A stretch of 64,000 bases of DNA from a virus: positions 6,837 to 70,836 of the IMG/VR virus record IMGVR_UViG_3300020176_000013; one strand, given 5' to 3'. Shown piece after piece: positions 2,626 to 62,025 of the stretch; position 1 is the first letter of the stretch, and each line of letters begins with the position of its first letter. Under the pieces are notes generated by a model. It ran no database searches. It saw only the letters and a list, made by a program, of their open reading frames with translations, and was not told the DNA's origin. The position numbers were made by a program, and so were the translations under genes.

Positions 2626-2639
2626 AAAAAATAATATTT

Positions 2640-4752: not shown

Positions 4753-5949
4753 ATGGCAAAAGAATTTTCATTCGCAGATCTAAATAAAGAAATGTCAAAA
4801 CACTCCACATACGGAGATACCTTAGATAAATCAACCATTTCTGAAATAGATCATTACATTCCAACGGGAAATTATCATCTTAATGCATGTTTAACAGGAT
4901 CTTTATTTGGAGGTTATCCTAATAATAGAGCAGTTGCATTAGCCGGCCCATCAGGTACTGGCAAAACATATCTTATTCTTAATGCAATTAAACAAGCACA
5001 GCAGCAAGGATATAGTATTGTATTTTATGACTCTGAAAATGCTGTCGATAAAAGATTGGTAGAAAAATTTGGTATTGATTCATCTAAGTTTAGATATGAG
5101 CCATGTAATACAGTCCAAGAATTTAGAAGTTCGGTAACTGCAATTACTGATGTACTTATAGAACAAAAGAAGAAGGGTGTTGAATTACCTAAGATCATGG
5201 TAGTCTTAGATTCTGCAGGTAACCTTGCAACACAAAAGGAAATCGATGATGCCAAAACAGGAAGTAGTAAAGCCGATATGACAAGAGCCAAATTGCTTAA
5301 GTCTACATTCCGTATTATTATGACACAATTTGGTATCTGTAAGATTCCATTCCTATTTTCAAATCACACTTACCAAACGCAAGATCTTTTTTCTCGCCAA
5401 GTTGGCGGTGGTGGTACTGGACCTGAATATGCTGCATCTATTATCTTATTCTTAGGTAAGGCTAAACTTAAAGAAGGTATTGAACAAACTGGTATTATTG
5501 TAACCGCTAAACCTAATAAGAATAGGTTTGCAAAACCAACAAATATTAAGTTTCACATTTCCTTTAATAAAGGAATGAATCCTTACATTGGCTTAGAAGA
5601 ATATATTAGTTGGGATACATGTGGTATTGAAAGAGGAAGGTTTATCAATGCAAATGCTTACGATAAATTAACCGATCCTGGTAAAGCTGAATGTAGAGAG
5701 CATATCTACGAAAAAGATGGTAAAGAAGTAACAGTATATTTCCAACCTGCTGCAACTGCAAGGAAGATGTGTGTTGCCCACCTTAATGATACTGTTGATC
5801 TTAATCAATTATTTACTCCTCAAGTATTAACTGAAGAAGTTCTTCAAAAATTAGAACCTATCGTCGCTGACAAATTTAAATATGGTGAAGAGATTGATGT
5901 GGAGAACTTATCTGAAATGTTAGAATCTGATGTTGAAGAAAACTCTTAA
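4753..5949 (+). CDS. uvsX: RecA-like recombinase UvsX
   Basis: Walker A AGPSGTGKT, YDSENA, VLDSAGNL, GGGTGPEYAAS, KNRF. Confidence 0.93.
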   Translation: MAKEFSFADLNKEMSKHSTYGDTLDKSTISEIDHYIPTGNYHLNACLTGSLFGGYPNNRAVALAGPSGTGKTYLILNAIKQAQQQGYSIVFYDSENAVDKRLVEKFGIDSSKFRYEPCNTVQEFRSSVTAITDVLIEQKKKGVELPKIMVVLDSAGNLATQKEIDDAKTGSSKADMTRAKLLKSTFRIIMTQFGICKIPFLFSNHTYQTQDLFSRQVGGGGTGPEYAASIILFLGKAKLKEGIEQTGIIVTAKPNKNRFAKPTNIKFHISFNKGMNPYIGLEEYISWDTCGIERGRFINANAYDKLTDPGKAECREHIYEKDGKEVTVYFQPAATARKMCVAHLNDTVDLNQLFTPQVLTEEVLQKLEPIVADKFKYGEEIDVENLSEMLESDVEENS

Positions 5950-6229
5950 TACCGCCAAGCTTAAAGTAAAGCACGTATTAGGAAATCATACAACACTACC
6001 AAACTATCCAGATGCTGAGGATATTACCTATGAACTGATACGTGACTACTGTGGTAAAGTAGCAAAAGAGATTAAGTTCACTAACGTTTCTTTGCAAAAG
6101 AAGTATAGTCTTTCTGATGAAAAGACTAATGAGATTATTATGCAACTTAGGAGGGATAAAATTATTGATGTATCCTTATCTAATTCTGCATATACTACTT
6201 ATGAGGTTATACGAAACCCATACGAATAA
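5930..6229 (+). CDS. Hypothetical protein (possible winged helix)
   Basis: 99-aa ORF overlapping the uvsX stop. Confidence 0.6.
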   Translation: MLKKTLNTAKLKVKHVLGNHTTLPNYPDAEDITYELIRDYCGKVAKEIKFTNVSLQKKYSLSDEKTNEIIMQLRRDKIIDVSLSNSAYTTYEVIRNPYE

Positions 6230-13851: not shown

Positions 13852-13889
13852 AAAAGCCGGTAGTCAATAATAAACTATCGGCTTTTTTT
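13852..13889 (+). terminator. Intrinsic terminator overlapping the next promoter
   Basis: AAAAGCCGGTAGT...ACTATCGGCTTTT followed by a T run. Confidence 0.75.
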
Positions 13890-13917
13890 GTATATAATAA
13901 TAAATAAAACACATGGG

Positions 13918-14283
13918 ATGGCTAGAAAAAGAAATTACCTAAATAATAGAGATCTGCTTGAAGAGATAAAAAAATCTAAAGAGCAAGATGAATTAACACC
14001 AAAGGCATTAGAATTCCTAATGCTATTAGCAGATAAATGTTCAAGAAAATTATCATATGCAAATCCTGACGATAGGGATGATTGTATAGCTTATGCTTAT
14101 ATGGATCTTTACAGGTACTGGAGAAACTTTAATCCAGAGAAAAGTACTAATGCATTTGCATATTTTACTGAAATAGCAAAGAGAGGCTTTGCAAAGGGGT
14201 GGAATAAATTACATCCAAAGAAATATGCTGGAACTGTATCAATTAATGGAAGTGCAGACAGTGACGGTATCTATACGATTTAA
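13918..14283 (+). CDS. gp55: Late-transcription sigma factor (gp55-like)
   Basis: NYLNNRDLLEEI and NFNPEKSTNAFAYFTEIA motifs typical of gp55 homologues; ATG at 13918 preferred. Confidence 0.8.
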   Translation: MARKRNYLNNRDLLEEIKKSKEQDELTPKALEFLMLLADKCSRKLSYANPDDRDDCIAYAYMDLYRYWRNFNPEKSTNAFAYFTEIAKRGFAKGWNKLHPKKYAGTVSINGSADSDGIYTI

Positions 14284-14288
14284 ACTTA

Positions 14289-14765
14289 ATGAGTATAAAG
14301 AAAGTAAAACCAACTTCAAAGTCAGGATTTAAACAAGGATATTATAAACCTCATCATCCTAAAAAGTATATGGGACCAGGTCCTATTATCTATAGAAGTA
14401 GTTGGGAGAGAAAGTTTTGTCATTGGTGTGATCATAATGAAGATGTTATAAATTGGATATCTGAACCTTTTTCTATAAAGTATTTTAATATCTTAGATAA
14501 AAAGTTTCATAATTATTATCCAGACTTTTATGTTAAAATGAATAAGAATGGTATCGTTGAAGAGTATGTGGTTGAAATTAAACCAAAAGCCCAGCTACAA
14601 AAACCAAAGGCACCAAAAAGAAAAACTGCAAAGGCTATGAAGAATTTCCAATACGGATATGAAACTTATGTTAAAAACCTTTGTAAGACTGAAGCATTAA
14701 ATAAAGCAGCTCAATTGAGAAACTTTAAAGTAATGCTATTAACCGAAGATTCAAAGTTATTCTAA
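14289..14765 (+). CDS. gp4: Head completion protein (gp4, TnsA-like nuclease fold)
   Basis: IIYRSSWERKF, WISEP, YYPDF, VEIKP. Confidence 0.88.
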   Translation: MSIKKVKPTSKSGFKQGYYKPHHPKKYMGPGPIIYRSSWERKFCHWCDHNEDVINWISEPFSIKYFNILDKKFHNYYPDFYVKMNKNGIVEEYVVEIKPKAQLQKPKAPKRKTAKAMKNFQYGYETYVKNLCKTEALNKAAQLRNFKVMLLTEDSKLF

Positions 14766-21877: not shown

Positions 21878-22361
21878 AGTCCGTAAGATAAACTTTGGAT
21901 GGTATAAAAGGAGGCATGGTATTCTATTAGAGAATCTGCCTCCTTTAAAGCAACGATTTATGATAGAGAATAATTATCTTAAATGGTTGGATTCTGATAT
22001 TCAGGCATTTGAAGTTATCTTTAAGGTTGAGGATATGAATGAGCATGAAAAAAATCCTAACCGTATCCTTTGGAATCCTTTTAGAGAAACCTTTACAAAT
22101 ATTAAAGAATTAGAAAAAGACTCCGATTTAGTAGATTGGAATTGTGGAATCTGTAAAGTAGAAATTAAATCCCGGATGGATTCTAAAAAGGTTGAAAACT
22201 TTGTATGTAAGAAATGCTCAGAGGCACATAACTCACGGAATAAAAGGGTCGATCAAAGGATAATAGATTCGTCCATTAAATTTACTAAACACTGTAAATC
22301 TCTTCTAAAAGGTGAACAAAGGGAGTTTCTCACTTATGTACGCAGATCATCTAAAAGATAA
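21870..22361 (+). CDS. Hypothetical zinc-ribbon protein
   Basis: CGIC...CKKC. Confidence 0.6.
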   Translation: MYKVRKINFGWYKRRHGILLENLPPLKQRFMIENNYLKWLDSDIQAFEVIFKVEDMNEHEKNPNRILWNPFRETFTNIKELEKDSDLVDWNCGICKVEIKSRMDSKKVENFVCKKCSEAHNSRNKRVDQRIIDSSIKFTKHCKSLLKGEQREFLTYVRRSSKR

Positions 22362-23135
22362 TGCTTCTTCTATTGATATCTTTTTAAATGTGTTAAGTTT
22401 ACTTGTAAGGCATGCATTAAATATTTGAATGTCTTTACCTTTTAACTCATTTTTTAGAATTTCAAATCCTGGTAAAAATTGATTCTTATAAATATTTTCG
22501 CCGGTTGCAGCAGTAGGATACCCATCATGAAAATGACTAGACTTACCGTCGTTTCCCATATCATAACCTAATAAGACTATTCGTTTGGCTCCTAAGTGAA
22601 TTGCTAAATTAATAGCTGCATATCCGCTATTATTACCATGAGCCAATGTATCAGGAGATTCCTCAAATCCAAATTTTCTTCCTCTTTTAAGAATATGAAC
22701 ATCGTTAGAGTATTGCCTAGGCCTAATGGTAAATTTTAATCCTTTGTAATTATTAATTTCTTTTTCTAACCAGGTCCAAACTCTACCATCTGTCCAATAC
22801 ATAGCATCAGCTTCTGGCCAAAACTTTATGGCTTTATTAATGGCAATGCTTTTTTTGTTTCTTAATCTATTCCAGTCAAACCCTTTAAGGGATGGACCTC
22901 CACCTATAAGATAAACAGTTTGCCCTTTCCATATAGGACTAACCTTTTTAAACACTTTAGGTGTAACATAAGGCACAGGTTTATTTTTACCTCCTTTCAT
23001 TTGTGCTGGCGAAACTACCTTTTTAACTACATTCTTTTTAACAGACCCTCTGGTTATCTGTGAAGGTTGATTTGAAGAATTGTCTTTAGGCAATGTAATT
23101 ACTACAGTTTTCTTAATTTTTCTTACTCTTCTCAT
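22347..23135 (-). CDS. DUF115/Maf/MptE-like (glycosyltransferase-related) protein with a basic N-terminal extension
   Basis: VYLIGGGPSL, AIN, NNSGYAAINLAIHLGAKRIVLLGYD, HFH. The only convincing minus-strand gene. Confidence 0.75.
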   Translation of the reverse strand: MRRVRKIKKTVVITLPKDNSSNQPSQITRGSVKKNVVKKVVSPAQMKGGKNKPVPYVTPKVFKKVSPIWKGQTVYLIGGGPSLKGFDWNRLRNKKSIAINKAIKFWPEADAMYWTDGRVWTWLEKEINNYKGLKFTIRPRQYSNDVHILKRGRKFGFEESPDTLAHGNNSGYAAINLAIHLGAKRIVLLGYDMGNDGKSSHFHDGYPTAATGENIYKNQFLPGFEILKNELKGKDIQIFNACLTSKLNTFKKISIEEALSFR

Positions 23136-42172: not shown

Positions 42173-42967
42173 ATGGATAAAAGTATTGTATGGTTTGATT
42201 TGGAAACCACAGGAGTAAACACAGCAAAGGATCGTATTATTGAGATTTGTATGATAAAGACCGATCTTGATGGAAACGAAACCGATCGCTTTTATTCTCT
42301 TGTAAATCCCGGCACAAATGTTGAGTGGAGACAAGAGGCGATTGATAAACATGGCATCACACCAGACACACTTACGGATCAACCGATGTTTGAATATATT
42401 GCTAAAGAAGTTGTAGACTTTATAAGTGATTCTGACCTTGGTGGATATAATGCACTTTACTTTGATATCCCAATGCTTACTGAAGAACTTATGAGAGCTG
42501 GTATTGTATTTAACCACCGTAACCGAGCTGTTATTGACCCTTTCCTTATTTACTCAAAGTATGAACGGAGAGATCTTAGTACAGCTTATACAAAATACAC
42601 AGGTAAGACTTTAGAAGACGCACACCGTGCAGAGAATGATATTCGCGCAACAATGGAAATCTTCCAGGCTCAACGCAAACTTTATGATATGCCACAAACA
42701 GTTGAAGAAATTGATAAAGTGGTTAATGAGTCTCGCCAGTCTCAAGTTGACCTAAGCGGTAAGTTTAAGTTTGCCGAGATTAACGGTAAGAAAGAAATTG
42801 TATTTAACTTTGGTAAGTGGAGCGGTAAACCTTTCCGTGAAGTATATGAAGCGGATTCTCGTTACATTGAATGGATGATTGATAAAGGAGAGTTCTCAAA
42901 GGAAACCAAAATCATTGCTCGTAAACTTATGGAAAAGATGAAGGCGGAGACTGAAGCCCCATTTTAA
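42173..42967 (+). CDS. DEDDh 3'-5' exonuclease (DnaQ/epsilon-like)
   Basis: FDLETTG, GYNALYFD, AHRAENDI; C-terminal FNFGKW.G domain. Confidence 0.9.
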   Translation: MDKSIVWFDLETTGVNTAKDRIIEICMIKTDLDGNETDRFYSLVNPGTNVEWRQEAIDKHGITPDTLTDQPMFEYIAKEVVDFISDSDLGGYNALYFDIPMLTEELMRAGIVFNHRNRAVIDPFLIYSKYERRDLSTAYTKYTGKTLEDAHRAENDIRATMEIFQAQRKLYDMPQTVEEIDKVVNESRQSQVDLSGKFKFAEINGKKEIVFNFGKWSGKPFREVYEADSRYIEWMIDKGEFSKETKIIARKLMEKMKAETEAPF

Positions 42968-49763: not shown

Positions 49764-50243
49764 ATGAATAAAGTAATTTTAGTTGGCAAGGCAGCTGCAG
49801 GTAAAGATCATATGAGAAAGATTTTATGTGGTCGTGGTTTTGAGTATGGTATATCTTATACTACAAGACCTCCTAGAGAAGGTGAAATTGATGGCAAAGA
49901 TTACTTCTTTCTTAGCGAAGTTGAATTTAAGAAAAAGATTAAGGATGATTATTGGTATGAATGGATAGAATTCAACGGTTGGTATTATGGTACAAGCCAT
50001 AGACAGTTTACGCATTCATGTAACCTATTCATAATGACACCTAAAGGTATAAGTCATATTGATCCAGTGGACCGTAAAGAATGTACTATCATATATCTTA
50101 ACATTCCTCAAGAAGTTCGAAGAAAGCGATTAGAAGAAAGGGCTATGCCAGGCGATTCAATAGACCGTAGAATGAAAGCAGATAAAATTGACTTTAAAGA
50201 TTTTACTGACTTTGATATTGAAATAAACAATTCCAACTTTTAA
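49764..50243 (+). CDS. gmk: Guanylate kinase-like NMP kinase
   Basis: GKAAAGKD, SYTTRPPREGEIDGKDYFF, WYYGT. Confidence 0.85.
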   Translation: MNKVILVGKAAAGKDHMRKILCGRGFEYGISYTTRPPREGEIDGKDYFFLSEVEFKKKIKDDYWYEWIEFNGWYYGTSHRQFTHSCNLFIMTPKGISHIDPVDRKECTIIYLNIPQEVRRKRLEERAMPGDSIDRRMKADKIDFKDFTDFDIEINNSNF

Positions 50244-50257
50244 CATATAAAAATAAA

Positions 50258-50851
50258 ATGAGTAAATTCATTATTATTGAGGGTACTGATAACACAGGTA
50301 AAGACACTCAACAAAATCTTATCATTGAAAAATTACATAACTTAGTTTTTCATAAACTTCATTACTCTTCATTACCATTTAAAGATAATGTAGAAAAACA
50401 TGTTAAGTATTCAACTAAAATGTATGATGACATGTTTAAAATGATGATGAATAATAAAGAAGATGGTATTAATATGATTTTTAACCGATCTCATTTAGGT
50501 GAATCGGTTTATTCTCCGCTTTACAGAAATTACTCAGGTGATTACATATTTGATATTGAAAAGAAATATGTAGATAAGTTAAGAAAGGAATTATATCTTA
50601 TTACATTAACAAATGATCCACATACAATCTTAAAGAGAGATGATGGTAAATCATTCTATGGTAATGAAGAAGAGGTTAAGGCTGAAATTGACGGTTTTAA
50701 CCGAGCTCATAGGTTAAGTAGGATTAAGAATAAATTGCTTATCAACATTGGTACAATGAGTGCTGATGAGGTTTCTCATATCATTGTAGATTTTCTTATG
50801 CATGAAAACTCTGTTATGGGTACTGCTGAACAACTAAATTTATTTGCATAA
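50258..50851 (+). CDS. Thymidylate-kinase-like dNMP kinase
   Basis: IIIEGTDNTGKDT, FNRSHLGESVYSPLYR. Confidence 0.75.
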   Translation: MSKFIIIEGTDNTGKDTQQNLIIEKLHNLVFHKLHYSSLPFKDNVEKHVKYSTKMYDDMFKMMMNNKEDGINMIFNRSHLGESVYSPLYRNYSGDYIFDIEKKYVDKLRKELYLITLTNDPHTILKRDDGKSFYGNEEEVKAEIDGFNRAHRLSRIKNKLLINIGTMSADEVSHIIVDFLMHENSVMGTAEQLNLFA

Positions 50852-51036
50852 TGGGACACTATGAAGACTTTTTCTGGGAAATAACCGAGGAATTAAAACG
50901 GTTAGGATTAAAGAAGGAGTTTGAACAAGAGATAAGAAAGATTCAATCCAATGATGAATTTAAGTATAAATCCATAAAAGAAAGATGGGAGTATGCTTTA
51001 AACAAAGTTAAACAATTACATAAAATTAATAAATGA
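50851..51036 (+). CDS. Hypothetical protein
   Basis: 61-aa ORF coupled to both neighbours. Confidence 0.6.
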   Translation: MGHYEDFFWEITEELKRLGLKKEFEQEIRKIQSNDEFKYKSIKERWEYALNKVKQLHKINK

Positions 51037-51941
51037 GAATATTTAAAGGAGAGACGTTTGCTGAGGCGTATCATTCAGCATTAAGTAGTGTTATCTATAA
51101 TCCTAATTACGTATCCTCACCAAGAGGTATGAAGATATTTGAAATGTCAGATGCTGCAATTGTAGTAGAAGATCCTTCATATTGTCTTTATGAAAATGAT
51201 CGTAGGAGTAGTCAATTTAAATACATCGCAGCAGAATTGGTTTGGTATTTCACAGGTCGTAATGATGCTGACTTTATTACTCCTTATGCAAAATTCTGGG
51301 ATCAAATTAAAAATAAAGATGGTTCAGTTAATTCTGCATACGGAAATCTTATCTTTACTGAAGAGTTAGAAGATGGCAGAAATCAATATCGTTGGGCATT
51401 AGATTCTTTAATCCAAGATAAAGACTCAAGACAGGCAATTTTACATTTTAATAAACCATCACATCAATGGAACGGTAATAAAGATTTTGTTTGTACTCTT
51501 AACGGTATATTCCAAATAAGAGATAATAAACTTAACTTTACTGTAGATATGAGATCTAATGATCTTGTCTTAGGTACTCCTACTGATGTTGCATTCTTTT
51601 GTTTGTTACAAATGCAAATGCTAGAGCATCTACGAAAGTATTATCCTGAGTTAGAGTTAGGTACATATACTCATATTGCCCATTCGCTTCACTTATATGA
51701 AAGACACTTTGATCTTGTAAGCGAAATGTTAATGAAATCATTTAATCCTCAGTCATATCCAGAAATGAGAGAGTTTTTAATTGATCCTAACGGTAAGCCA
51801 TTAGATGGTCTGAAACAATTAGAAGATGAAATGATTCAAAGCAATGATGTAGTGCTCCAAGGTGATTCTAAATTTGAACCTCAACCACATGATGATCTTT
51901 TACACCAATGGATATCTGATGCAATCTTTAGGAATATATAA
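51033..51941 (+). CDS. Thymidylate synthase family enzyme, dCMP hydroxymethylase (gp42)-type
   Basis: VNSAYG, SRQA, KDFVCT, MRSNDLVLGTPTD (Asp at the specificity position), SLHLYERH. Confidence 0.8.
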   Translation: MRIFKGETFAEAYHSALSSVIYNPNYVSSPRGMKIFEMSDAAIVVEDPSYCLYENDRRSSQFKYIAAELVWYFTGRNDADFITPYAKFWDQIKNKDGSVNSAYGNLIFTEELEDGRNQYRWALDSLIQDKDSRQAILHFNKPSHQWNGNKDFVCTLNGIFQIRDNKLNFTVDMRSNDLVLGTPTDVAFFCLLQMQMLEHLRKYYPELELGTYTHIAHSLHLYERHFDLVSEMLMKSFNPQSYPEMREFLIDPNGKPLDGLKQLEDEMIQSNDVVLQGDSKFEPQPHDDLLHQWISDAIFRNI

Positions 51942-51958
51942 ACAAATTAAATTTTGTT

Positions 51959-52897
51959 TTGAAGTATTTAAAATTATTTGAAAATTTTAAAGACGGAGAT
52001 GGTCTTAAAAAAGTTTACTTAGCCCTTAGAGAAGATAGTGGGCAAAGATGGTGGACTTATAAAGGTTTTGCTGGTGATAAGTTCTTCATTCAGATCCATG
52101 AAAATAACATAGATGATATTGATATTAATCCTGACTATCCTGTACTAACTTATCATACTGATACTGTTAAAAAGTTACTGGATTCAGGAAAGATAAAAGA
52201 AGAGAATATCTATAATCACCCAGATCATATTTCAAAATCTGGATCTAAGGAAGAATTTCATAAGCTTGTAGGAGAGGATGAGAATATACCTAAGACGGTT
52301 TATTCTAAAAATGATGCTTTAGAAAATTTAGAATTTCCTATTATTGCAAAACCGTCAAAAGGGCACAGCGGAATAGGTATTCAAATTATTGATAAGCCAG
52401 ATTTAATGGAAGATGTGGATGAAAAAATCTTTGATACATTTTCTGAATATATTGATAAAGAAGAAGAACATAGATTTATTAATTTTAAAGGAAAACCAAT
52501 TTTCTGGATGGAACGTACTCCGCTTAATGAAAAAGCAAAAAGCGGTAAAGGCGAAGCCAAAGAAGAAATGGAATTTGGTTATGCTAAAAGAAACTTAAAA
52601 GATTTACCTAAAGACTATAAAAATGTTTTGGAAAAGTTTTGTAAGATCTATGAAGATTTGCCTTATATGTGTTTTGATATGATGAAAGGCAAAAACGGTA
52701 AAGTATATGTTATTGAATCAAATGCTCAACCTGGTGTTCCATTCGATTCAACTATTGAGGCTTACAAACATATATATGAAGATTTTTATAAAAAGCCTTT
52801 AGATAAAGACAGTCTAACTAAACTTGATGAATATGCAAAAACTATGGTTGAAAAAACCCTTAAGAAAGACGGAGGTAAAAGATTTTCAATTAAATAG
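51959..52897 (+). CDS. ATP-grasp (RimK-like) ligase
   Basis: IPKT, FPIIAKPSKGHSGIGI, FSEYI..EHR, CFDMM, VIESNAQPG; TTG start. Confidence 0.8.
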   Translation: MKYLKLFENFKDGDGLKKVYLALREDSGQRWWTYKGFAGDKFFIQIHENNIDDIDINPDYPVLTYHTDTVKKLLDSGKIKEENIYNHPDHISKSGSKEEFHKLVGEDENIPKTVYSKNDALENLEFPIIAKPSKGHSGIGIQIIDKPDLMEDVDEKIFDTFSEYIDKEEEHRFINFKGKPIFWMERTPLNEKAKSGKGEAKEEMEFGYAKRNLKDLPKDYKNVLEKFCKIYEDLPYMCFDMMKGKNGKVYVIESNAQPGVPFDSTIEAYKHIYEDFYKKPLDKDSLTKLDEYAKTMVEKTLKKDGGKRFSIK

Positions 52898-52922
52898 AAA
52901 AAGGTTCATTAATAATTTTCAG

Positions 52923-52947
52923 TTCCCAATTTTTTGTATTATATTTG
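52923..52947 (+). promoter_or_regulatory. Putative early promoter with a Bacteroidota -7 element
   Basis: TATATTTG (TAnnTTTG) at 52940-52947, preceded by TTCCCAA as at 43011. Confidence 0.6.
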
Positions 52948-52980
52948 TACTGTAACAGTCAAATCTGTAACTAATTTTTT

Positions 52981-53523
52981 ATGCTTAAAGATTTAGAAAC
53001 TCCAAAAGATTTTTTTATAACATCCGATACGTGGTTTGGAAGACCACAGATTTTACAAATAGCTAATCGTTTATCATTTAAAGATATAGATGATATGAAT
53101 GATAAGTTAATAAAGAATTGGAATAAGACAGTTAAAAAGAATGATCTTGTATTTCATTTAGGAAATTTTGCATGGGATCCCAATACTGCTAGAAATGTTT
53201 TAGAAAAATTAAATGGACAAATTTATTTTATCCTAGGTAATACTGATGATGCTATTTTAGATGTTCATCTTGAGTTTAAAAATGTATCATTACTTGAAGA
53301 TCAGATCTTAGAATTACCTCAATACGATTCAATCATTTGCCATTACCCATTAGAGGTTTGGAATGGTAAAGATTCAGGGACTATTCATTTTCATGGTCAT
53401 ACTGTGTTTTCTCATAAGACAGATTTAACCAAAATGAATAGGGTAAATGTATGTACAGATTTTTGGAACTACACCCCTGTTAAATATTCAACTATTAAAG
53501 ATTTTATAAATGACAAAAACTAA
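52981..53523 (+). CDS. Calcineurin-like metallophosphoesterase fold with degenerate metal ligands
   Basis: SDTWFG, HLGNF, LGNTD, CHYP, HGHTV versus canonical SDxHFGH, HLGDF, GNHD, HYP, HGHxH. Confidence 0.8.
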   Translation: MLKDLETPKDFFITSDTWFGRPQILQIANRLSFKDIDDMNDKLIKNWNKTVKKNDLVFHLGNFAWDPNTARNVLEKLNGQIYFILGNTDDAILDVHLEFKNVSLLEDQILELPQYDSIICHYPLEVWNGKDSGTIHFHGHTVFSHKTDLTKMNRVNVCTDFWNYTPVKYSTIKDFINDKN

Positions 53524-54142
53524 AAAGACCTACAAAGAATTGGCAATTGAATTTAAGAACACAAAATCAGAAAAATCTTACAATGAACTTTATAAGAAGA
53601 TGAGACCAGGTTTATGGTCTTATGTTAATAATATCGTAAAAGATCCTACTATTGCTGACGATATAGTTTCTACTACATTAACTACAGTTTATCTTAAAAT
53701 TGACCAATACAATGAAGATTATCAAATCACTACGTGGGCATATCGTATTGCCTATAATGAATGTATCGGTTGGATAAGATTTAGAAATAAAAAGGTAAGT
53801 ATGAATGTATTTACCGATGCAGGTGTGGAGCCTCCTATGAATGAGTCATTTACAACAATTGATGGAATTTTACCTAAAACAGAAAATGACTGGGAAGAAG
53901 AAGACAATTTATTAGATGAGAAAGTTCGTTTAACATATGAAGCAATAAATGCATTGCCTCCAATGTATAAGAGATATATGGTTGAAAGATTTCTTAATCA
54001 TAAATCTTATTCTGATATTTTAGAAATAATGTTAGAGTTTGAAAAAGACATAAATCTTCAAACTGTAAAGAACAGAATATTCAGAGGAAGAAAAATAGTT
54101 AAAAAACAGCTCGAAGGGATGAAACTATTTTCTGAAATCTAA
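53510..54142 (+). CDS. Sigma-70 ECF-type sigma factor
   Basis: Region 2 (ADDIVS...KIDQY....ITTWAYRIAYN) and region 4 (LPP.YK...SYSDI...TVKNRIFRGRK). Confidence 0.87.
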   Translation: MTKTKKTYKELAIEFKNTKSEKSYNELYKKMRPGLWSYVNNIVKDPTIADDIVSTTLTTVYLKIDQYNEDYQITTWAYRIAYNECIGWIRFRNKKVSMNVFTDAGVEPPMNESFTTIDGILPKTENDWEEEDNLLDEKVRLTYEAINALPPMYKRYMVERFLNHKSYSDILEIMLEFEKDINLQTVKNRIFRGRKIVKKQLEGMKLFSEI

Positions 54143-54823: not shown

Positions 54824-55573
54824 ATGGCAACATCTGAATCTCTAGCAACCACAGAAACAATAAACGGTAAAAGATACTACAATGTAGGTGAAGGCAAAAA
54901 ATATCCTTCAGTAACAACTATCTTAGGCGCCATGACTGATAAGTCTGGTTTAGATAAATGGAGAAAAAGAGTAGGTGAGGAAGAAGCTGATCGCATTTCA
55001 AAGTTTTCTGCTAATCGTGGAACTGTAATGCATCAGCTTAATGAATACTTTTTAGGTTCAACTAAAGAGACTGTTAGGGAAAGACTATTAGAGGCCCAAC
55101 AACTTATCATACCTTTTGCCGAAGAGAATGGGTTTACTGAGGAAGAGGTAACGGTAGGTAGAAAACTGTTCTTTAATTTCTATAACAATAATTGTTTCGG
55201 TCGTATTGCTAAGGTTGTATCTATAGAAGACACTCTATACTCACCTGTAATGGGAGGGTATGCAGGTAGAGTAGATATTATTTATGAGAATGATAAAGCA
55301 CATCTAATCGTCTTAGATTTTAAGTCATCTAAGAAGCCTAAGAAAGAAGAATGGATCGAAAACTACAAAATGCAAATTGCTGCATATTCATTAGCCTATT
55401 GGGAAATGAATGGTGTTAAGCCAAGCGGTGGAGAAATATGGATAAGTAATGAAACTGATGCATTTCCACAAATCTTTGAAATGACATTCGAAGACATCAC
55501 ATTTTACGGAAAGAAGTTTCTTAATCTTGTAAAAGACTTTCATGAAAAGTATCCATTAACCGAGAATATATAA
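54824..55573 (+). CDS. PD-(D/E)XK exonuclease (RecB/Cas4-like)
   Basis: YPSVTTIL, WRKRVG, RGTVMH, AGRVD, DFKSS, QIAAY. Confidence 0.87.
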   Translation: MATSESLATTETINGKRYYNVGEGKKYPSVTTILGAMTDKSGLDKWRKRVGEEEADRISKFSANRGTVMHQLNEYFLGSTKETVRERLLEAQQLIIPFAEENGFTEEEVTVGRKLFFNFYNNNCFGRIAKVVSIEDTLYSPVMGGYAGRVDIIYENDKAHLIVLDFKSSKKPKKEEWIENYKMQIAAYSLAYWEMNGVKPSGGEIWISNETDAFPQIFEMTFEDITFYGKKFLNLVKDFHEKYPLTENI

Positions 55574-55883: not shown

Positions 55884-56171
55884 ATGAACAAATTCAACAA
55901 ATTTTTTGTAGACCACGGTATGAAAATACTTATCGTCTTATTGATACTTAGCTACTTCAAATCATGTAGCATTGATTCCGAACTTGAAAGAATCAAAAAA
56001 GATCAAAGAATTTTAACAACCGAGATTGATACTCTTTCGTCTCAGATTGTAAACGAGGAGGAAATGATTTTCTTAATCAAAACAGTTCCTGCTTGGAAAA
56101 CTCTAAGAATTGAAGAAATCTCCGATAAGGAAAGAATTTCTATTAATGCATTAGAGGAAAAAGAAGACTAA
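55884..56171 (+). CDS. Membrane-anchored/lipoprotein-like protein (spanin candidate)
   Basis: Hydrophobic helix ending FKSC, then a coiled coil; ATG at 55884 preferred. Confidence 0.5.
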   Translation: MNKFNKFFVDHGMKILIVLLILSYFKSCSIDSELERIKKDQRILTTEIDTLSSQIVNEEEMIFLIKTVPAWKTLRIEEISDKERISINALEEKED

Positions 56172-56175
56172 ATGA

Positions 56176-57822
56176 GTGGCTGGTAGAGTACCTATAATTC
56201 CAGGAGTCCCAACTCCAAGCGATCCACAATGTGCATTAACTTATTGTGGAAGAATTATCGCACAAGTAGATTGTATTAAATGGATAGTACAAGGTACTTC
56301 TGCATGCATTGATATTCAATTATTTAATGCTAATGATAAACCACTTAATCTTGATACTATATGTGATATACACGTTCAACTAACAAATGAGTTAGAATGT
56401 GTTGTTGCAAATTTTTGGTATCCTGATGTTCCTTCTGGGTCAAAGGGATTCCTTATAGACATCTTACAATATACTGATACCTCGGGTACAATTTATAATG
56501 AAGGTTTAATTAGAATCTGCCTACCTTCCAGCTGTACATATGTTTCACCTGGAAATATAATGGCTGAAATACTTCTAACTGAATGTGGAGGAAATACTGG
56601 AGATCCAACTGGCGTAGGTCCTACTGGTGCATTACCAACCGGATCCGCTGAAATTTATGGAATTCCATGTTTATGGGTTGCTACGATTGTTGAATCTAAG
56701 ATTGCACAAAATGGTGGTGATAGTGGATGTTATCCAGGCTATGTACCCGGTGGAGGTGGATCTGGTGGTGGAGGTGGATCTGTTTCAGGTTCTGTTGGTG
56801 CAACCGGTCAACAAGGTCCACAAGGCCCACGAGGATTTATTGGGGCCACTGGTATAGGTGGAAGCGGCGGAGGAAATGATGGTGCAACTGGTGTTCAGGG
56901 ACCACAGGGACCACAGGGACCAATCGGTGCGACTGGTTTAACTGGTCTACAAGGTGCAACTGGAGCTGATGGTGTAGGTTCTACTGGAGCTACTGGTCTG
57001 CAAGGTCCAATTGGTGCAACTGGAGCTGATGGGGTAGGTTCTACTGGAGCTACTGGTCCGCAAGGAGAAATTGGTGCCACTGGTGTTCAGGGTCCAATTG
57101 GTGCAACTGGAGCTGATGGTGTAGGTTCTACTGGAGCTACTGGTGTTCAAGGACCACAAGGTGATATAGGTGCCACTGGTATTCAAGGACCACAAGGTGA
57201 TATAGGTGCCACTGGTATTCAAGGACCGCAAGGAGATATAGGAGCCACTGGTGTTCAGGGACCACAGGGTGATATAGGTGCCACTGGTGTTCAGGGACCA
57301 CAGGGTGATATAGGTGCCACTGGTGTTCAAGGACCACAAGGTGATATAGGAGCCACTGGTGTTCAGGGACCACAGGGTGATATAGGTGCCACTGGTGTTC
57401 AAGGACCGCAAGGAGATATAGGAGCCACTGGTGTTCAAGGTCCTCAGGGTGCTACCGGTTTAACTGGTGCTACTGGAGTAATAGGTGCAACTGGGTCTGA
57501 CGCTGATACTTTAGTAACGACTAACACACAATCAAATAGTTATACCTTAGTATTAAGTGATAGAAATAAAATAGTTGAAATAAGTAATGCATCTTCTAGG
57601 ACTTTAACAGTTCCACCCAATTCATCTGTTGCATTCCCTATCGGTTCTCAGGTTATGGTAGCAAGAGGTGATACAGGGTCTGTTCGAATTTTAGCAGGTA
57701 GTGGCGTTACAATAGATTCTTCAAATAACAATACATTTTTACAGTATCAGTATTCTGGAGCAACACTTGTCAAAAAATCCACTGACGGTTGGTGGTTGTT
57801 TGGAGATTTATCCGCAAGTTAA
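56176..57822 (+). CDS. Collagen-like fibre protein
   Basis: Cys-rich N-domain, Gly linker, about 230 aa of Gly-X-Y repeats, globular C-domain; GTG start. Confidence 0.85.
57133..57447 (+). repeat. 36-bp tandem repeat (GATG[V/I]QGPQGDI), about 8 copies
   Basis: GG[T/A]GCCACTGGT[G/A]TTCA[A/G]GGACC[A/G]CA[A/G]GG[T/A]GATATA units in frame. Confidence 0.9.
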
Positions 57823-57825
57823 TAT

Positions 57826-58686
57826 ATGATACAGTTAGTTACATCAGGAATTTTAGAACAACCGCAACCTATTGCTAATGAATGGGAACCTACCGATGCA
57901 AGTGTGGTTGCTTGGATTGATGCAAGTGATACTTCTTCATATACTACATCAGGCTCAACCTTAACAGCTGTTACAGATAAAGCAGGTACTTATACTATGT
58001 CAATTGGTAATACACCTACTGTCGTTACTAATGGTCTTAATAGCTTAAATGTATTTGATTTTGATGGAAGTGGTGAATATTTGCAAAGTACAAGTTATTC
58101 AGCGCAAACAGATGGTAGTGGAAATCATTGGGCAGTTGGAGTATTTTTAGCAGATTTTGTTGATGCGGATAAAGATTCTTTTTGGTCTTACGAAACAAAT
58201 ACTTCAATAAGTACCAAAAGAGATTATGCAATATCATCAGGTAGTGGAGGTTCAAATACTTGGCCAGGTGAGCTTGACTTAGATACAAACAACGTAACTA
58301 ACAGAATAAGTTCTACGATTGGTAATTTACAGGATTGGACTTTACAAAGTGTCTCAATTGATAACTGGGTTATTGTTTCATGTTGGTTTAATAAAACAGG
58401 TAATCAAATAGGTAACCGGGTCAATGGTAATAACGCATATACTCCTGTTAATGACTATGATAATTCAATTCAGACTAATCAAGAATTACGCCTAATGAGA
58501 AACCGAGCGTCTCAAGAATTAGATGGCCGCTTGGCGGAATTCTTTGCGGTTGCTGATATACCAGGAACGGGTGGAACAGATCTTACAGATTTACAGAAAG
58601 GCGAAGGGTATCTTGCTTGGAAGTGGGGATTAGTAGGTTTACTGCCATCTGGACACCCATATAAGAATAATCCACCTACTGTTTAG
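57826..58686 (+). CDS. LamG/concanavalin-like virion accessory protein
   Basis: WIDASD, FDGSGEYL, EGYLAWKWGL...LPSGHPYK; follows the collagen gene. Confidence 0.65.
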   Translation: MIQLVTSGILEQPQPIANEWEPTDASVVAWIDASDTSSYTTSGSTLTAVTDKAGTYTMSIGNTPTVVTNGLNSLNVFDFDGSGEYLQSTSYSAQTDGSGNHWAVGVFLADFVDADKDSFWSYETNTSISTKRDYAISSGSGGSNTWPGELDLDTNNVTNRISSTIGNLQDWTLQSVSIDNWVIVSCWFNKTGNQIGNRVNGNNAYTPVNDYDNSIQTNQELRLMRNRASQELDGRLAEFFAVADIPGTGGTDLTDLQKGEGYLAWKWGLVGLLPSGHPYKNNPPTV

Positions 58687-60167: not shown

Positions 60168-61043
60168 ATGGTTTTAAAACAAGGATCTCGTGGAATAGAG
60201 GTTAAAGAAATACAAAAGTTTTTAGGTATCTATGCAGATGGTATATTTGGTCCGAAGACACATAACAAAGTTTGTGAATGGCAACATGAAAACCAATTGG
60301 TGGTTGATGGTATTGTTGGCCCTGCCACTTGGAATGCTATGGGTCTTGCTAGTACTGATAATTCGGAACTTACTGAATCGTTGGAAAACGGATTAGTAAT
60401 TCATAAACATTATTTACCAGAAGATGAGTACATGACAGGAAGTAAACCTGAATATGTATTTCTTCATCACACTGCAGGTTGGCATAATCCATACAAAACA
60501 ATTGATCATTGGGCAGGTGATAGCAGAGGAAAGGTTGCTACAGAATTTGTTTTAGGTGGTCAATCTGTTAGAGGAAATGATGATCGTTATGATGGTGTTC
60601 TAGTACAATGTATGCCGCAAGGCGGTTGGGGTTGGCACTTAGGAACTGGAAGAAGTCACATGCATAAAAACTCTGTTGGTATTGAAGTAAATAATTTTGG
60701 ATGGGTGAAAGATGGAAAAACATATGCAGGTACAAGAGTTGATTCTAGCCAAATAGTTGTTCTATCTAAACCATTTAGAGGTTATTCTACATGGCACCGT
60801 TACTCTGATAAACAGATTGAAGTACTAAGAGATTGGATACTTTGGATTGGCGAAAGAGATAATATTGATGTAAGGGCTGGTTTACCTGCTCTTATTAAAG
60901 AAAAAGGTGCTGATGCATTTGAATTTAATCAGGAAGTATTAGAAGGTAAACATAAAGGTTTATGGACTCATACAAATGTTCGTAAAACTAAAGTGGATAT
61001 GTTTCCTCAACCAGAATTATTAGATATGTTAACTAGCTTATAA
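60168..61043 (+). CDS. Endolysin: peptidoglycan-binding domain plus Zn-amidase
   Basis: LKQGSRG..VKEIQ...DGIFGPKT...DGIVGPATW; LHHTAG, SVGIEV, WTHTNV..K.D. Confidence 0.88.
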   Translation: MVLKQGSRGIEVKEIQKFLGIYADGIFGPKTHNKVCEWQHENQLVVDGIVGPATWNAMGLASTDNSELTESLENGLVIHKHYLPEDEYMTGSKPEYVFLHHTAGWHNPYKTIDHWAGDSRGKVATEFVLGGQSVRGNDDRYDGVLVQCMPQGGWGWHLGTGRSHMHKNSVGIEVNNFGWVKDGKTYAGTRVDSSQIVVLSKPFRGYSTWHRYSDKQIEVLRDWILWIGERDNIDVRAGLPALIKEKGADAFEFNQEVLEGKHKGLWTHTNVRKTKVDMFPQPELLDMLTSL

Positions 61044-61429
61044 TGGAAAAGTATATTTATAGATGTAAATTAGATCGTGTAATTGACGGTGATACTGTTG
61101 ATGCAATGATTGATGTTGGATTTGATATTTGGATTAAAAGAAGAATAAGATTTAAAGGAATGAATGCATGGGAAAGCCGTACAAGAAACCTTAACGAAAA
61201 GGCATTAGGCTTAGCTGCAAAGAAAAGACTTATAGAACTTTTAACCGAAGTAAGTTCAAAACCAAACTTCTTTAGAATTAAATCCTATGGTGAAGGTAAG
61301 TATGGTCGTGTACTTGCCGAATTATTCATAATGGATAATGATGGTAATGTTATAAACATAAACGAAACTCTTATTGCTGAAGGTCATGCTCATGAATATG
61401 ATGGTGGTAAAAGAAAAGAGTTTAAATGA
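61043..61429 (+). CDS. Thermonuclease (SNase-like)
   Basis: RVIDGDTV, RIRF.G.NA.E, KYGRVLA, INETLIAEGHA. Confidence 0.87.
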   Translation: MEKYIYRCKLDRVIDGDTVDAMIDVGFDIWIKRRIRFKGMNAWESRTRNLNEKALGLAAKKRLIELLTEVSSKPNFFRIKSYGEGKYGRVLAELFIMDNDGNVININETLIAEGHAHEYDGGKRKEFK

Positions 61430-62025
61430 AAGTATTTTGCGTAGGAACATGGAAAACTGGAACCACTTCAATGGGGCATGCCCTTCATACTATTATGGGA
61501 GGGAAACATCAAAAATGGGACCATAAAAATAGACTTCTTTATTTTAATAATAAGTTTGAAGATATTTTTAGAATTAGTAAAAGACATAGAACTTTTGATG
61601 ATACTCCTTGGAATTGTATTGATGTTTGGCCTAAGTTAAAGGAAATGTATCCTAATTCAAAATACATATTAACTCTAAGAGAAGAGGAGTCTTGGTTTAA
61701 TAGTATGGTTAAGTGGTATCGAGGTGATCTTAATACTTTTAACCATTCACATATTGTTAAAGGTATCTATGATAGACAACTTAAACCTTTTGGTTTTGAT
61801 ATTGAAGATATGGCCGTATTGGAAAATTCAAAAGAACATTGGATTGAGTGGTACAGAAAAAGAAATAAACATTTAATTGATGCATTTAGGGGTACTGATC
61901 GTCTCCTAACATATAATATAACGACGGAAAAAGGATGGGAGACTTTGTGCAATTTTTTAGAAAAAGACATTCCAACTGAAGAATTCCCTCATCTTAATAA
62001 AAATGACAGTATGACACTAGGTTAA
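61426..62025 (+). CDS. Sulfotransferase family protein
   Basis: KVFCVG..KTGTTS (PAPS loop), YPNSKYILTLR...WFNS, GWETLCNFL, FPHLN. Confidence 0.83.
   Translation: MKVFCVGTWKTGTTSMGHALHTIMGGKHQKWDHKNRLLYFNNKFEDIFRISKRHRTFDDTPWNCIDVWPKLKEMYPNSKYILTLREEESWFNSMVKWYRGDLNTFNHSHIVKGIYDRQLKPFGFDIEDMAVLENSKEHWIEWYRKRNKHLIDAFRGTDRLLTYNITTEKGWETLCNFLEKDIPTEEFPHLNKNDSMTLG

Follow-up and report, generated by a model that had tools for sequence, protein, structure and literature searches.

Does a viral thymidylate synthase (TS) homologue flanked by two nucleotide kinases serve to make a modified cytosine for phage DNA, and if so, which one? We addressed this question for a stretch of 64,000 nucleotides (positions 6,837 to 70,836 of IMG/VR record IMGVR_UViG_3300020176_000013), hereafter referred to as the window, while the record as a whole is referred to as the contig. 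According to the original prediction, the enzyme makes a 5-modified dCMP, which the kinases phosphorylate and which glycosyltransferases (GTs) encoded near the polymerase may decorate. The four open reading frames assigned to this module were recovered with the boundaries given in the first four lines below, followed by two neighbors:

49764..50243, + strand: guanylate-kinase-like NMP kinase (159 aa; PF00625, phrog_1815; P-loop GKAAAGKD)
50258..50851, + strand: divergent thymidylate-kinase-like P-loop nucleotide kinase (197 aa; phrog_761)
50851..51036, + strand: 61-aa ORF (start overlapping the kinase stop, TAATG; stop overlapping the TS homologue start, ATGA)
51033..51941, + strand: TS-family enzyme, predicted dCMP hydroxymethylase, i.e., 5hmdCMP synthase (302 aa; PF00303, D/D/D residues, phylogeny)
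51959..52897, + strand: ATP-grasp-like protein (312 aa; variable slot immediately after the TS homologue)
52981..53523, + strand: metallophosphoesterase-like protein, a conserved neighbor (180 aa; phrog_547, 1.2e-33)

Family membership, diagnostic residues, phylogenetic position, synteny, and gene co-occurrence were computed here; from these we infer enzyme activities, kinase substrates, incorporation into DNA, and glycosylation.

Identity and predicted product of the TS homologue

The TS homologue matched PF00303 far beyond chance (E 2.7e-23; 82.9 bits, cut-off 24.3), and 1021 proteins matched it at E<=1e-10. Among solved structures, the T4 dCMP hydroxymethylase gp42 (85.5 bits) was the best match, followed by MilA, a CMP hydroxymethylase (79.9 bits). 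The gp42 match spanned 212 residues (~85 bits) with an E value of 3e-23 for the gp42 structures, compared to 2.4e-12 (49.8 bits) for the best ThyA structure. At 302 aa versus 246 aa, the query carries a C-terminal extension of ~60 aa relative to gp42.

The key residues of the enzyme are E68, D151, C154, D177, and D185. The likeness to gp42 motifs pointed out previously was confirmed by the HMMER alignment with T4 (1b49/1b5e, E 3e-23), in which VNSAYG aligns with INSNYG and DFVCT with DFMCT, the latter containing the catalytic cysteine. C154 corresponds to ThyA C146 and T4 C148, and E68 corresponds to T4 E60, the general-base glutamate; both residues were invariant in 24/24 homologues and in all 120 matches listed. 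The aspartate read at codon 51585 is indeed there: GAT at 51585-51587 encodes Asp185, within MRSNDLVLGTPTDVAF, and pairs with the aspartate of T4 'FRNDYAW'. Because the deposited T4 mutant 6l18 reads 'FRNNYAW' in the same column, this column corresponds to the T4 Asp179 specificity position.

Three positions diagnostic of the product, L143, D169, and N177 in ThyA numbering, were published in 2026 (PMC13326640). According to that report, N177D makes dCMP the substrate, L143D/E (a leucine in ThyA) lets water in and so leads to a product other than a methyl group, and D169N marks 5-hydroxy-dCMP synthases; the D169N rule draws on a small number of tested enzymes, and the position is termed there a 'potential diagnostic residue'. 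The query reads D/D/D at these positions (D151, D177, and D185), exactly as T4 gp42 does, and 120/120 homologues listed (58-100% identity) harbor E/D/C/D/D at the five key residues. As controls, RB69 gp48 aligned as E/N/D, the dUMP hydroxymethylases of SPO1 and SP10 as D/D/N, and the Xp12 dCMP methylase as N/D/D, all matching their reported behavior. Assignment to PHROG families was rejected as a way to discriminate between enzyme classes: ThyA, gp42, and Xp12 all match phrog_160, SPO1 and phage G match phrog_5131, and the query scored about equally on both.

We then placed the enzyme in two maximum-likelihood (ML) trees, in both of which the T4 gp42 branch is long. A split supported at 100/100 and 100/98 set ThyA and Xp12 apart from the query and every hydroxymethylase, and T4 gp42, together with the enzyme of phage XG4, was nested in the 12-row query clade (support 97/99). 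An aspartate at ThyA position 177 has also been found enriched in contigs with modified cytosine (MetaGPA, PMC8670742). The claim that the enzyme makes a 5-modified dCMP is supported by the D/D/D residues and the clade position, and it can be narrowed: the predicted product is 5-hydroxymethyl-dCMP rather than 5-hydroxy-dCMP or 5-methyl-dCMP.

Other products were weighed against the same data. Flavin- and O2-dependent 5-hydroxy-dCMP synthases of the RB69 gp48 / DLP3 gp80 type, whose base is then ether-linked to a sugar, belong to the same superfamily and share N177D and an acidic L143 with the query. Furthermore, the sugar kinase, phosphatase, nucleotidyltransferase, and GT set of the contig and of relative G004 resembles the arabinosyl-5hoC sets of RB69 and DLP3. 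However, Asp occupies the D169 position of the query and of 120/120 homologues listed while RB69 gp48 has Asn, the equivalents of W80, G173, and Y209 are retained in the query but lost from RB69 gp48, and the clade that holds the query and T4 gp42 does not include RB69 gp48. We consider such a synthase improbable, and since the query has Asp without the diagnostic D169N, the predicted base is 5hmC and not 5hoC. Another candidate activity is that of the dCMP methyltransferase of Xanthomonas phage Xp12, which would yield 5-methylcytosine DNA; the Xp12 enzyme shares its fold and catalytic cysteine with the query, as ThyA does. Xp12 also has Asp at N177, an exchange that alone suffices to make a dCMP methylase out of a thymidylate synthase (literature cited in PMC8670742). 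Nevertheless, we rate this reading as very unlikely: at L143 the query has Asp, like the T4, SPO1, and SP10 hydroxymethylases, whereas Xp12 (Asn) and ThyA (Leu, PMC13326640) are nonacidic; Xp12 groups with ThyA across the strongly supported branch described above; and the linked GT-like genes would be left without a hydroxyl to act on.

An ordinary thymidylate synthase converting dUMP to dTMP, with the two kinases serving generic nucleotide salvage, is extremely unlikely. Source annotations do label the family 'thymidylate synthase', and the partial contig carries no other one. But Asp185 stands in place of the Asn conserved in dUMP-specific enzymes, the NCBIfam TS equivalog models remained far under their cut-offs (best 65 bits versus 327), and the canonical ThyA of relative G001 scored 299 bits on PF00303 compared to ~83-92 bits for the query family. 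In addition, a separate thyA or thyX, which the original prediction proposed to look for, was present besides the TS homologue in two of the four related records searched, as ThyA in G001 and as ThyX (178 bits) in G003; neither was found in G002, the most complete relative (83%).

Kinases and genomic context

Two kinases had been predicted just upstream of the TS homologue and both are present, assigned by PF00625 and phrog_1815 for the first and by phrog_761 for the second. The guanylate-kinase (GK)-like protein matched PF00625 with 73 bits (3.4e-20; cut-off 25.2) and phrog_1815 at 1e-31, and its best solved match was yeast guanylate kinase 1gky (2.6e-17). It scored 89.5 bits on the NCBIfam equivalog TIGR03263, whose cut-off is 160; its P-loop ends in GKD, not GK[ST], and the segment opposite yeast 'ILDIDMQG' is shortened. 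A homologue was found in 40/48 related loci, directly upstream of the TS homologue in 37. This protein would be a (d)GMP kinase feeding phage DNA synthesis.

The second kinase matched the phrog_761 'thymidylate kinase' family at 3.7e-16, while PF02223 (24.8 bits, cut-off 27) and TIGR00041 (26.4 bits, cut-off 83) remained below threshold, and a PDB profile search matched the thymidylate kinase (TMPK) P-loop region alone (E 0.003). Many of its homologues have a precomputed PF02223 match or are named 'thymidylate kinase' by JGI. Among its phage homologues are phage G gp315 (2e-8), RB69 gp45 (6e-6), an ORF of RsoM2USA (1.5e-17), and a kinase of Enterococcus phage 9183 (2e-4), and in all four phages the kinase homologue adjoins an Asp-type TS homologue. 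We call it TMPK-like because of the phrog_761 match and the RB69 gp45 homology, given that PF02223 and TIGR00041 fell below their cut-offs. Found in 37/48 loci, this protein is the strongest candidate for phosphorylating 5hmdCMP (and dTMP). Neither window kinase was similar to T4 gp1, and no gp1 homologue was found in five records, all incomplete, in a search without a positive control. As both kinases lie below curated equivalog or gathering cut-offs, their substrates are given as predictions.

The order kinase-kinase-TS homologue recurs in 37/48 related viral contigs. The 61-aa ORF had no Pfam or PHROG match and is uncertain as a real gene, because BLASTP matched it in 3/48 loci only. The ATP-grasp-like protein matched PF14398 (1.1e-5, below cut-off) and the D-Ala-D-Ala ligase 3r23 (4.9e-5); 28/48 loci had a match (32-92% identity) at varying positions. 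All of its family matches being weak and generic, we left it out of the module. The metallophosphoesterase-like protein was found in 31/48 loci. A scan for promoters and terminators was uninformative (27 promoter-like sites versus 31.4 expected; no + strand terminator), and megablast of the module against a phage collection gave zero matches.

The phage has a T4-like core comprising a portal protein, gp23, gp15, a clamp loader, UvsX, and a gp41-like helicase, and its portal shares 63% identity with the one of an uncultured 462-kb phage. The sequence was found in 22 public runs listed, all assembled contigs and mostly salt-marsh metagenomes; the lineage is one of marine or salt-marsh huge phages. 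The SNase (61043-61429), PD-(D/E)XK (54824-55573), and DEDDh/RNase_T (42173-42967) nuclease genes are present; that they degrade unmodified host DNA, as had been proposed, is speculative.

The contig, which represents ~23% of a complete genome, encodes no dCTPase, dUTPase, MazG, dCMP deaminase, or second thymidylate synthase. The dCTPase that the original prediction suggested searching for was recovered in the close relative G004, whose TS homologue is 91% identical to the query: it is T4 gp56-like (E 3.8e-22, BLASTP 6e-25), and G004 was the one record of five with a gp56 homologue. Since it lies ~11 kb upstream of the GT-like gene described below, a dCTPase is expected past the 5' end of this contig. 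MazG was detected in one of the five records, as a weak match.

These genes bear on another possibility, namely that 5hmdCMP is a mere intermediate deaminated to 5hmdUMP, with thymine replaced or hypermodified, or that 5hmC replaces cytosine only partly. In the more distant relatives G002 and G003, the gene immediately after the TS homologue encodes a dCMP deaminase, and phage G has one near its TS homologue. Similarly, a C5-cytosine DNA methylase, apparently intact (PF00145, 2.8e-18) and conserved in relatives, lies on the same contig and implies some unmodified cytosine somewhere; because full substitution by 5hmC would deprive this methylase of its substrate, replacement may be partial. T4, however, encodes a dCMP deaminase and yet has 5hmC DNA; this contig, as far as it reaches, has none; and the gp56-like dCTPase of G004 fits cytosine replacement. 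We therefore hold deamination or partial use to be decidedly improbable. A route through the methylase and a TET oxygenase, or to 5-carbamoyloxymethylcytosine, is without support, because neither a TET/JBP oxygenase nor a carbamoyltransferase was found in any of the five records, all incomplete.

Glycosylation candidates and known systems

Two GT-like genes were considered as candidates for glycosylation of the modified base:

2640-3800 of the window: GT1 beside the polymerase, 65% identical to a Synechococcus-phage gene adjoining tail-fiber genes
1851-3116 of the contig, 5' of the window and outside it: 421-aa GT-like protein

That the modified cytosine is glycosylated is plausible, but the proposed agents, the GTs near the polymerase, did not hold up: the polymerase-side GT1 showed no link to cytosine modification and, with its relative adjoining Synechococcus-phage tail-fiber genes, was rejected as a DNA glycosyltransferase on present evidence. 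It is the other GT-like gene that is linked. The 421-aa protein matched only eight phage records, and in 8/8 a D/D/D TS homologue lies within ~3.5 kb; on this contig, the distance to the TS homologue is ~55 kb. The contig and G004 also carry genes for an APH-like sugar kinase, a HAD phosphatase, and a nucleotidyltransferase along with the GT-like gene, and these sugar genes lie ~50 kb from the TS homologue. Homologues of alpha-gt and beta-gt were not seen.

A C5-cytosine 'methylase' accompanies the GT-like gene in two distant lineages. A tentative and rather doubtful extension is that this abundant clade carries an undescribed cytosine hypermodification, in which 5hmC would be decorated by the 421-aa GT-like family with a phage-activated sugar and the C5-'methylase' may act on 5hmC DNA instead of merely methylating cytosine. 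Activation of the sugar, and possibly its tailoring, would fall to the APH-like kinase, the nucleotidyltransferase, two SAM methyltransferases (one of FkbM type), and an NAD-dependent epimerase/dehydratase.

A close parallel is the T4 5hmC pathway (gp42, gp1, gp56, and the alpha/beta-glucosyltransferases). The catalytic Cys and Glu and the D/D/D residues are common to gp42 and the query, a gp56 homologue exists in the close relative, and the phage core is T4-like. In contrast, sequence identity to gp42 is low, a GK-like and a TMPK-like kinase stand in the place of gp1, and the candidate transferase belongs to a different, uncharacterized GT-like family.

The glycosylated 5-hydroxycytosine clusters of RB69, DLP3, and RL38J1, as reported in PMC13326640, resemble this locus in that an Asp-type TS homologue adjoins a TMPK-like 'nucleotide kinase', and both they and this phage have sugar kinase, nucleotidyltransferase, phosphatase, and GT genes. 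They differ by the diagnostic D169N, absent from the query, and we saw no arabinose-5-phosphate isomerase among the annotated ORFs. SPO1 gp29 and its SP10 counterpart share hydroxymethylase chemistry, the acidic L143 equivalent, and a long C-terminal extension, but their identity to the query is 27-29% and they form a separate clade; they act on dUMP, since they have Asn at the specificity position.

A further parallel is provided by the clusters of VPE25/VFW and 9183/Planchet/TJE4 (Enterococcus) and of XG4 (Pseudoalteromonas), which contain, in this order, a kinase, a D/D/D TS homologue (30-40% identical to the query), a dUTPase-family gene, sugar-activation genes, and a GT. In 9183, Planchet, TJE4, and XG4, this GT is a homologue of the 421-aa GT-like protein (27-30% identity over ~400 aa), and XG4 also has a C5-methylase homologous to that of the contig (33% identity, 7e-65). 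The D/D/D homologue of VPE25, 32% identical to the query, lies beside a beta-glucosyltransferase, and VFW gave a match at the same identity; the DNA of both phages is reported to resist bisulfite conversion and hence to be cytosine modified (PMC4999554). Unlike in our contig, where the genes are split across the genome, they form one compact cluster in these phages.

A probable T4-type pathway in an uncultured lineage

Taken together, we consider it quite likely that the phage runs a T4 gp42-type 5hmC pathway made up of the enzyme, the kinases, a dCTPase, and probable glycosylation. Given a predicted T4-style dCMP hydroxymethylase with two adjoining nucleotide kinases, the phage DNA probably contains a modified, likely sugar-decorated cytosine. 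By analogy with T4, Cys154 would attack C6 of dCMP, with Asp185 selecting cytosine over uracil. The methylene of 5,10-methylene-THF would be hydrated instead of reduced, with the acidic Asp151 in the place of ThyA Leu143, to give 5-hydroxymethyl-dCMP. The two kinases would jointly replace what T4 gp1 does alone, the TMPK-like one phosphorylating 5hmdCMP and probably also dTMP and the GK-like one dGMP. 5hmC would then enter phage DNA by way of the host NDP kinase and the phage family-B polymerase, while a gp56-like dCTPase, seen in the close relative and expected beyond the 5' end of the contig, would remove dCTP. After replication, 5hmC would probably be glycosylated, with the 421-aa GT-like protein as the candidate and the neighboring sugar kinase and nucleotidyltransferase genes as the predicted sugar supply. 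The outcome would be DNA resistant to host restriction.

We found no published description of this clade's module in the main texts searched; tested metagenomic TS homologues relevant to the clade may be listed in the supplements of PMC13326640 and PMC8670742. Judged from its genes, the module is probably a fresh instance of the T4-type 5hmC pathway, probably glycosylated, i.e., a known antirestriction strategy in an unstudied phage lineage. With it, the exchange of cytosine for 5hmC known from T4 would reach a large uncultured marine/salt-marsh lineage related to 'huge phages', with >1000 enzyme homologues found on contigs of up to ~214 kb. Two kinases are present here where T4 has gp1, and a TMPK-like 'nucleotide kinase' accompanies dCMP-modifying enzymes in several phage families, which makes its substrate a testable question. 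A second one is posed by the uncharacterized GT-like family, found in cultured phages only beside gp42-type enzymes. Such modified DNA would affect phage escape from restriction and CRISPR, as well as the recovery of these phages by sequencing methods sensitive to base modification.

The module and the class of its thymidylate synthase homologue

The putative cytosine-modification module spans window 49764-51941 and consists of four tightly packed ORFs:

49764-50243, +, guanylate-kinase-like (GK-like) protein, 159 aa
50258-50851, +, divergent thymidylate-kinase-like (TMPK-like) P-loop protein, 197 aa
50851-51036, +, 61-aa ORF overlapping its neighbours at both ends (TAATG, ATGA)
51033-51941, +, thymidylate synthase (TS) family member, 302 aa (PF00303, 2.7e-23)

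The original prediction of a TS homologue preceded by two kinases, and bearing Asp at codon 51585 where dUMP-specific enzymes have Asn, holds at each point: the PF00303 match identifies the family, both kinases lie directly upstream, and the codon is GAT (Asp185). In a HMMER alignment, Asp185 pairs with the Asp of T4 'FRNDYAW', and since the T4 mutant structure 6l18 has Asn there, this column represents the specificity position. The likeness to T4 gp42 motifs was equally confirmed, VNSAYG aligning with INSNYG and DFVCT with DFMCT, which contains the catalytic Cys of the T4 dCMP hydroxymethylase.

Among solved structures, T4 dCMP hydroxymethylase matched the TS homologue best (85.5 bits), followed by MilA, a CMP hydroxymethylase (79.9 bits); ordinary thymidylate synthase structures reached at most 49.8 bits. 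Furthermore, the protein fell far under the cut-off of every NCBIfam TS equivalog model; PHROG families did not separate these TS-family enzyme classes. According to PMC13326640 (2026), in E. coli ThyA numbering, N177D leads to dCMP as substrate, an acidic residue at the L143 position accompanies non-methyl products, and D169N is a signature of the 5-hydroxy-dCMP synthases, which require flavin and O2 and include those of RB69 and DLP3. We read these positions in an alignment with reference enzymes taken from public phage records.

Residues at the ThyA L143/D169/N177 equivalents
TS homologue, window 51033-51941: D151/D177/D185
T4 gp42: D/D/D
RB69 gp48: E/N/D, agreeing with the publication
SPO1 and SP10 dUMP hydroxymethylases: D/D/N
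Xp12 dCMP methylase: N/D/D

The ThyA of the related viral record G001 has Asn at the N177 position in the same alignment; its Cys region is misaligned through an insertion, and it was thus left out of the L143 comparison.

Two other assignments fit poorly. A 5-hydroxy-dCMP synthase would carry Asn at the D169 position, where the TS homologue has Asp; the W80, G173, and Y209 equivalents are retained here and altered in RB69 gp48. The Xp12/ThyA type is contradicted by the acidic L143 position and by two maximum-likelihood trees, which split ThyA and Xp12 from our protein and all hydroxymethylases (100/100 and 100/98). In the 22-row tree, T4 gp42 and the enzyme of Pseudoalteromonas phage XG4 nest in a 12-row clade with the TS homologue (97/99) and RB69 gp48 falls outside it, although T4 gp42 and RB69 gp48 sit on long branches, and their exact positions deserve less confidence than the support figures imply. 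E68, D151, C154, D177, and D185 were found in all 120 listed homologues (58-100% identity); 1021 proteins, many of marine origin, match at E<=1e-10. MetaGPA (PMC8670742) had shown an enrichment of Asp at position 177 among environmental phage contigs whose cytosine is modified. Every sequence-level test applied points to the gp42 type, and the predicted activity is that of a dCMP hydroxymethylase.

Downstream, the region separating the TS homologue from a phosphoesterase (51941-52981) differs between relatives; its ATP-grasp gene has matches in 28 of 48 related IMG/VR loci (32-92% identity), at shifting positions. One of two sigma-70-like factor genes (13888-14283 and 53510-54142), the latter, lies just 3' of the module and is kept in 31/48 loci.

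Kinases and other pathway genes

The order GK-like, TMPK-like, TS homologue is found in 37 of the 48 loci, and the GK-like gene in 40. Neither kinase resembles T4 gp1, and no gp1 homologue was detected in five incomplete related records by a search run without a positive control. The TMPK-like protein is divergent, lying under the Pfam cut-off and, in a profile search of the PDB, yielding matches to the P-loop region alone. TMPK-like putative 'nucleotide kinases' are listed for the RB69, DLP3, and RL38J1 clusters in Table 1 of PMC13326640, and homologues adjoin Asp-type TS homologues in unrelated phages:

Homologues of the TMPK-like kinase
RsoM2USA ORF: 1.5e-17
Bacillus phage G gp315: 2e-8
RB69 gp45: 6e-6
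Enterococcus phage 9183 kinase: 2e-4

We infer that 5-hydroxymethyl-dCMP is the substrate of the TMPK-like enzyme and dGMP that of the GK-like enzyme. Jointly, the two kinases would take the role of gp1 in T4.

Further pathway genes were sought in four or five related records, each incomplete, and the companions named in the original prediction, a separate thyA or thyX and a dCTPase, do occur there. Among four records, G001 encodes a canonical ThyA (299 bits) and G003 a ThyX (178 bits), each besides its Asp-type enzyme, while neither was found in the incomplete G002 and G004. A dCMP deaminase is present in 3/5 records, directly 3' of the Asp-type TS homologue in G002 (C1:66111-66455) and G003 (C1:29698-30018), and a dUTPase-family gene in 2/5. 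Bacillus phage G has a dCMP deaminase near its Asp-type TS homologue. A clear T4 gp56-like dCTPase (E 3.8e-22; BLASTP 6e-25, 35% identity) was found in one of the five, G004, a close relative in which the TS homologue has 91% identity to ours. Because G004 is colinear with our contig (the whole record) and reaches ~15.5 kb further upstream, the corresponding gene would sit just past the contig 5' end. Directly 5' of this dCTPase gene, G004 (L065) carries an Fpg/Nei-family DNA glycosylase gene (4773-5609).

Candidate glycosyltransferases and a C5-cytosine methylase homologue

Glycosyltransferases near the polymerase had been proposed as possibly glycosylating the modified cytosine. The GT1 gene there (2640-3800) lies between the polB C-terminal half and UvsX, the slot in which T4 has gene 42 and beta-gt. 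Its close relatives (65% identical) are found in Synechococcus phages (51/57 matching phage records), including S-CAM7 and ACG-2014f, and adjoin tail-fibre genes in S-CAM7. Given these relatives and neighbours, GT1 has no visible tie to cytosine modification, and the proposal found no support in this gene. Judging from the similarity, cyanophages and this lineage may have exchanged genes.

A better candidate for a 5-hydroxymethylcytosine (5hmC) glycosyltransferase is encoded outside the window, at contig 1851-3116. This 421-aa GT-like protein has weak PF13524 matches and viral and GT-like Atlas neighbours. In the phage collection its matches are restricted to eight records, all with a D/D/D TS homologue within ~3.5 kb of the GT-like gene:

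Records with the GT-like gene
Pseudoalteromonas phage XG4
four Enterococcus Denvervirus (two being the same phage, 9183)
two Agathobaculum phages
one uncultured faecal phage

The XG4 and 9183-type clusters also harbor a fusion of a nucleotidyltransferase with an APH-like kinase, along with a small gene of phosphatase-like type, and a sugar-activation set of this kind was described for RB69 and DLP3 (PMC13326640). Beside the GT-like gene, our contig and G004 carry an APH-like kinase, a nucleotidyltransferase, an FkbM-type methyltransferase, an NAD-dependent epimerase/dehydratase, and a SAM methyltransferase; a HAD hydrolase was seen in G004. A nearby GT8-like gene, an Atlas lead only, has its 3' end at window base 203. 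From these gene contents, the odds that 5hmC is glycosylated in the phage DNA are roughly even. Some of the sugar genes may instead serve protein or surface glycosylation, as PseB-, PglD-, and DegT-type genes lie farther upstream in the G004 island and a DUF115/MptE-like gene (weak match, 3.3e-7, under cut-off) occupies window 22347-23135 on the minus strand. The latter is the sole long minus-strand gene among those annotated.

A C5-cytosine DNA methylase homologue (PF00145, 2.8e-18) is encoded 5' of the window, at contig 4770-6032 (L060), and on visual inspection the PC, ENA, and QRRMR motifs seem undamaged. It shares the distribution of the GT-like gene, being present in G000, G001, and G004, in each 1-1.7 kb 3' of that gene, and absent from G002 and G003. 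The XG4 GT-like cluster includes a homologue (L064 5363-6580; 33% identity, 7e-65). No TET/JBP oxygenase was found in the five incomplete records. A C5-methylase is left without substrate when every cytosine is 5-substituted, and its presence is thus hard to square with full replacement by 5hmC. Replacement could be partial, the methylase could target other DNA, or it could have a different activity altogether; in vitro, C5-methylases are capable of other chemistry on 5hmC.

The phage lineage and comparison with T4

The contig (70.8 kb, G+C ~32%; CheckV completeness ~23%), of which the window covers bases 6837-70836, encodes a core set resembling that of T4: portal, gp23-like capsid protein, prohead protease, gp15-like protein, sheath, large terminase, clamp-loader subunit, UvsX, and a DnaB/gp41-like helicase. 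The nearest portal belongs to the uncultured 462-kb phage LR756500 (63% identity); those of further huge phages, and of Sphingomonas phage PAU, come next (31-39%). Near-identical DNA is contained in many salt-marsh metagenome runs.

The family-B DNA polymerase is apparently split in two genes. Its C-terminal half lies at window 1507-2625; the N-terminal half was located in G004 (L065, 6169-7575), where ~16 kb separate the halves and the island between them holds RNR subunits, sugar-biosynthesis genes, the C5-methylase, GT-like genes, and a cyclophilin. Amid the structural genes, window 14289-14765 encodes a protein with the N-terminal domain of a TnsA-like endonuclease (PF08722, 1.1e-13). A 548-aa protein with collagen triple-helix repeats (56176-57822) coincides with a G+C of 0.427 at 56001-58000, against ~0.30-0.34 on both flanks. 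Window 61043-61429 encodes an SNase-like nuclease, with an amidase carrying peptidoglycan-binding domains just 5' of it; next comes a protein with a sulfotransferase domain (61426-62025; PF17784, 1.4e-30).

Overall, the module would resemble the T4 pathway in its working, with enzyme activity, kinase substrates, DNA incorporation, and glycosylation all predicted from gene content. Unlike in T4, the genes are scattered, the kinases are non-orthologous to those of T4, no T4-type glucosyltransferase was seen, and the phage belongs to another lineage. We found no published description of this clade's module in the literature, supplementary files aside. Together, the glycosylation and methylase questions leave a real chance that a new sugar modification is hidden here.
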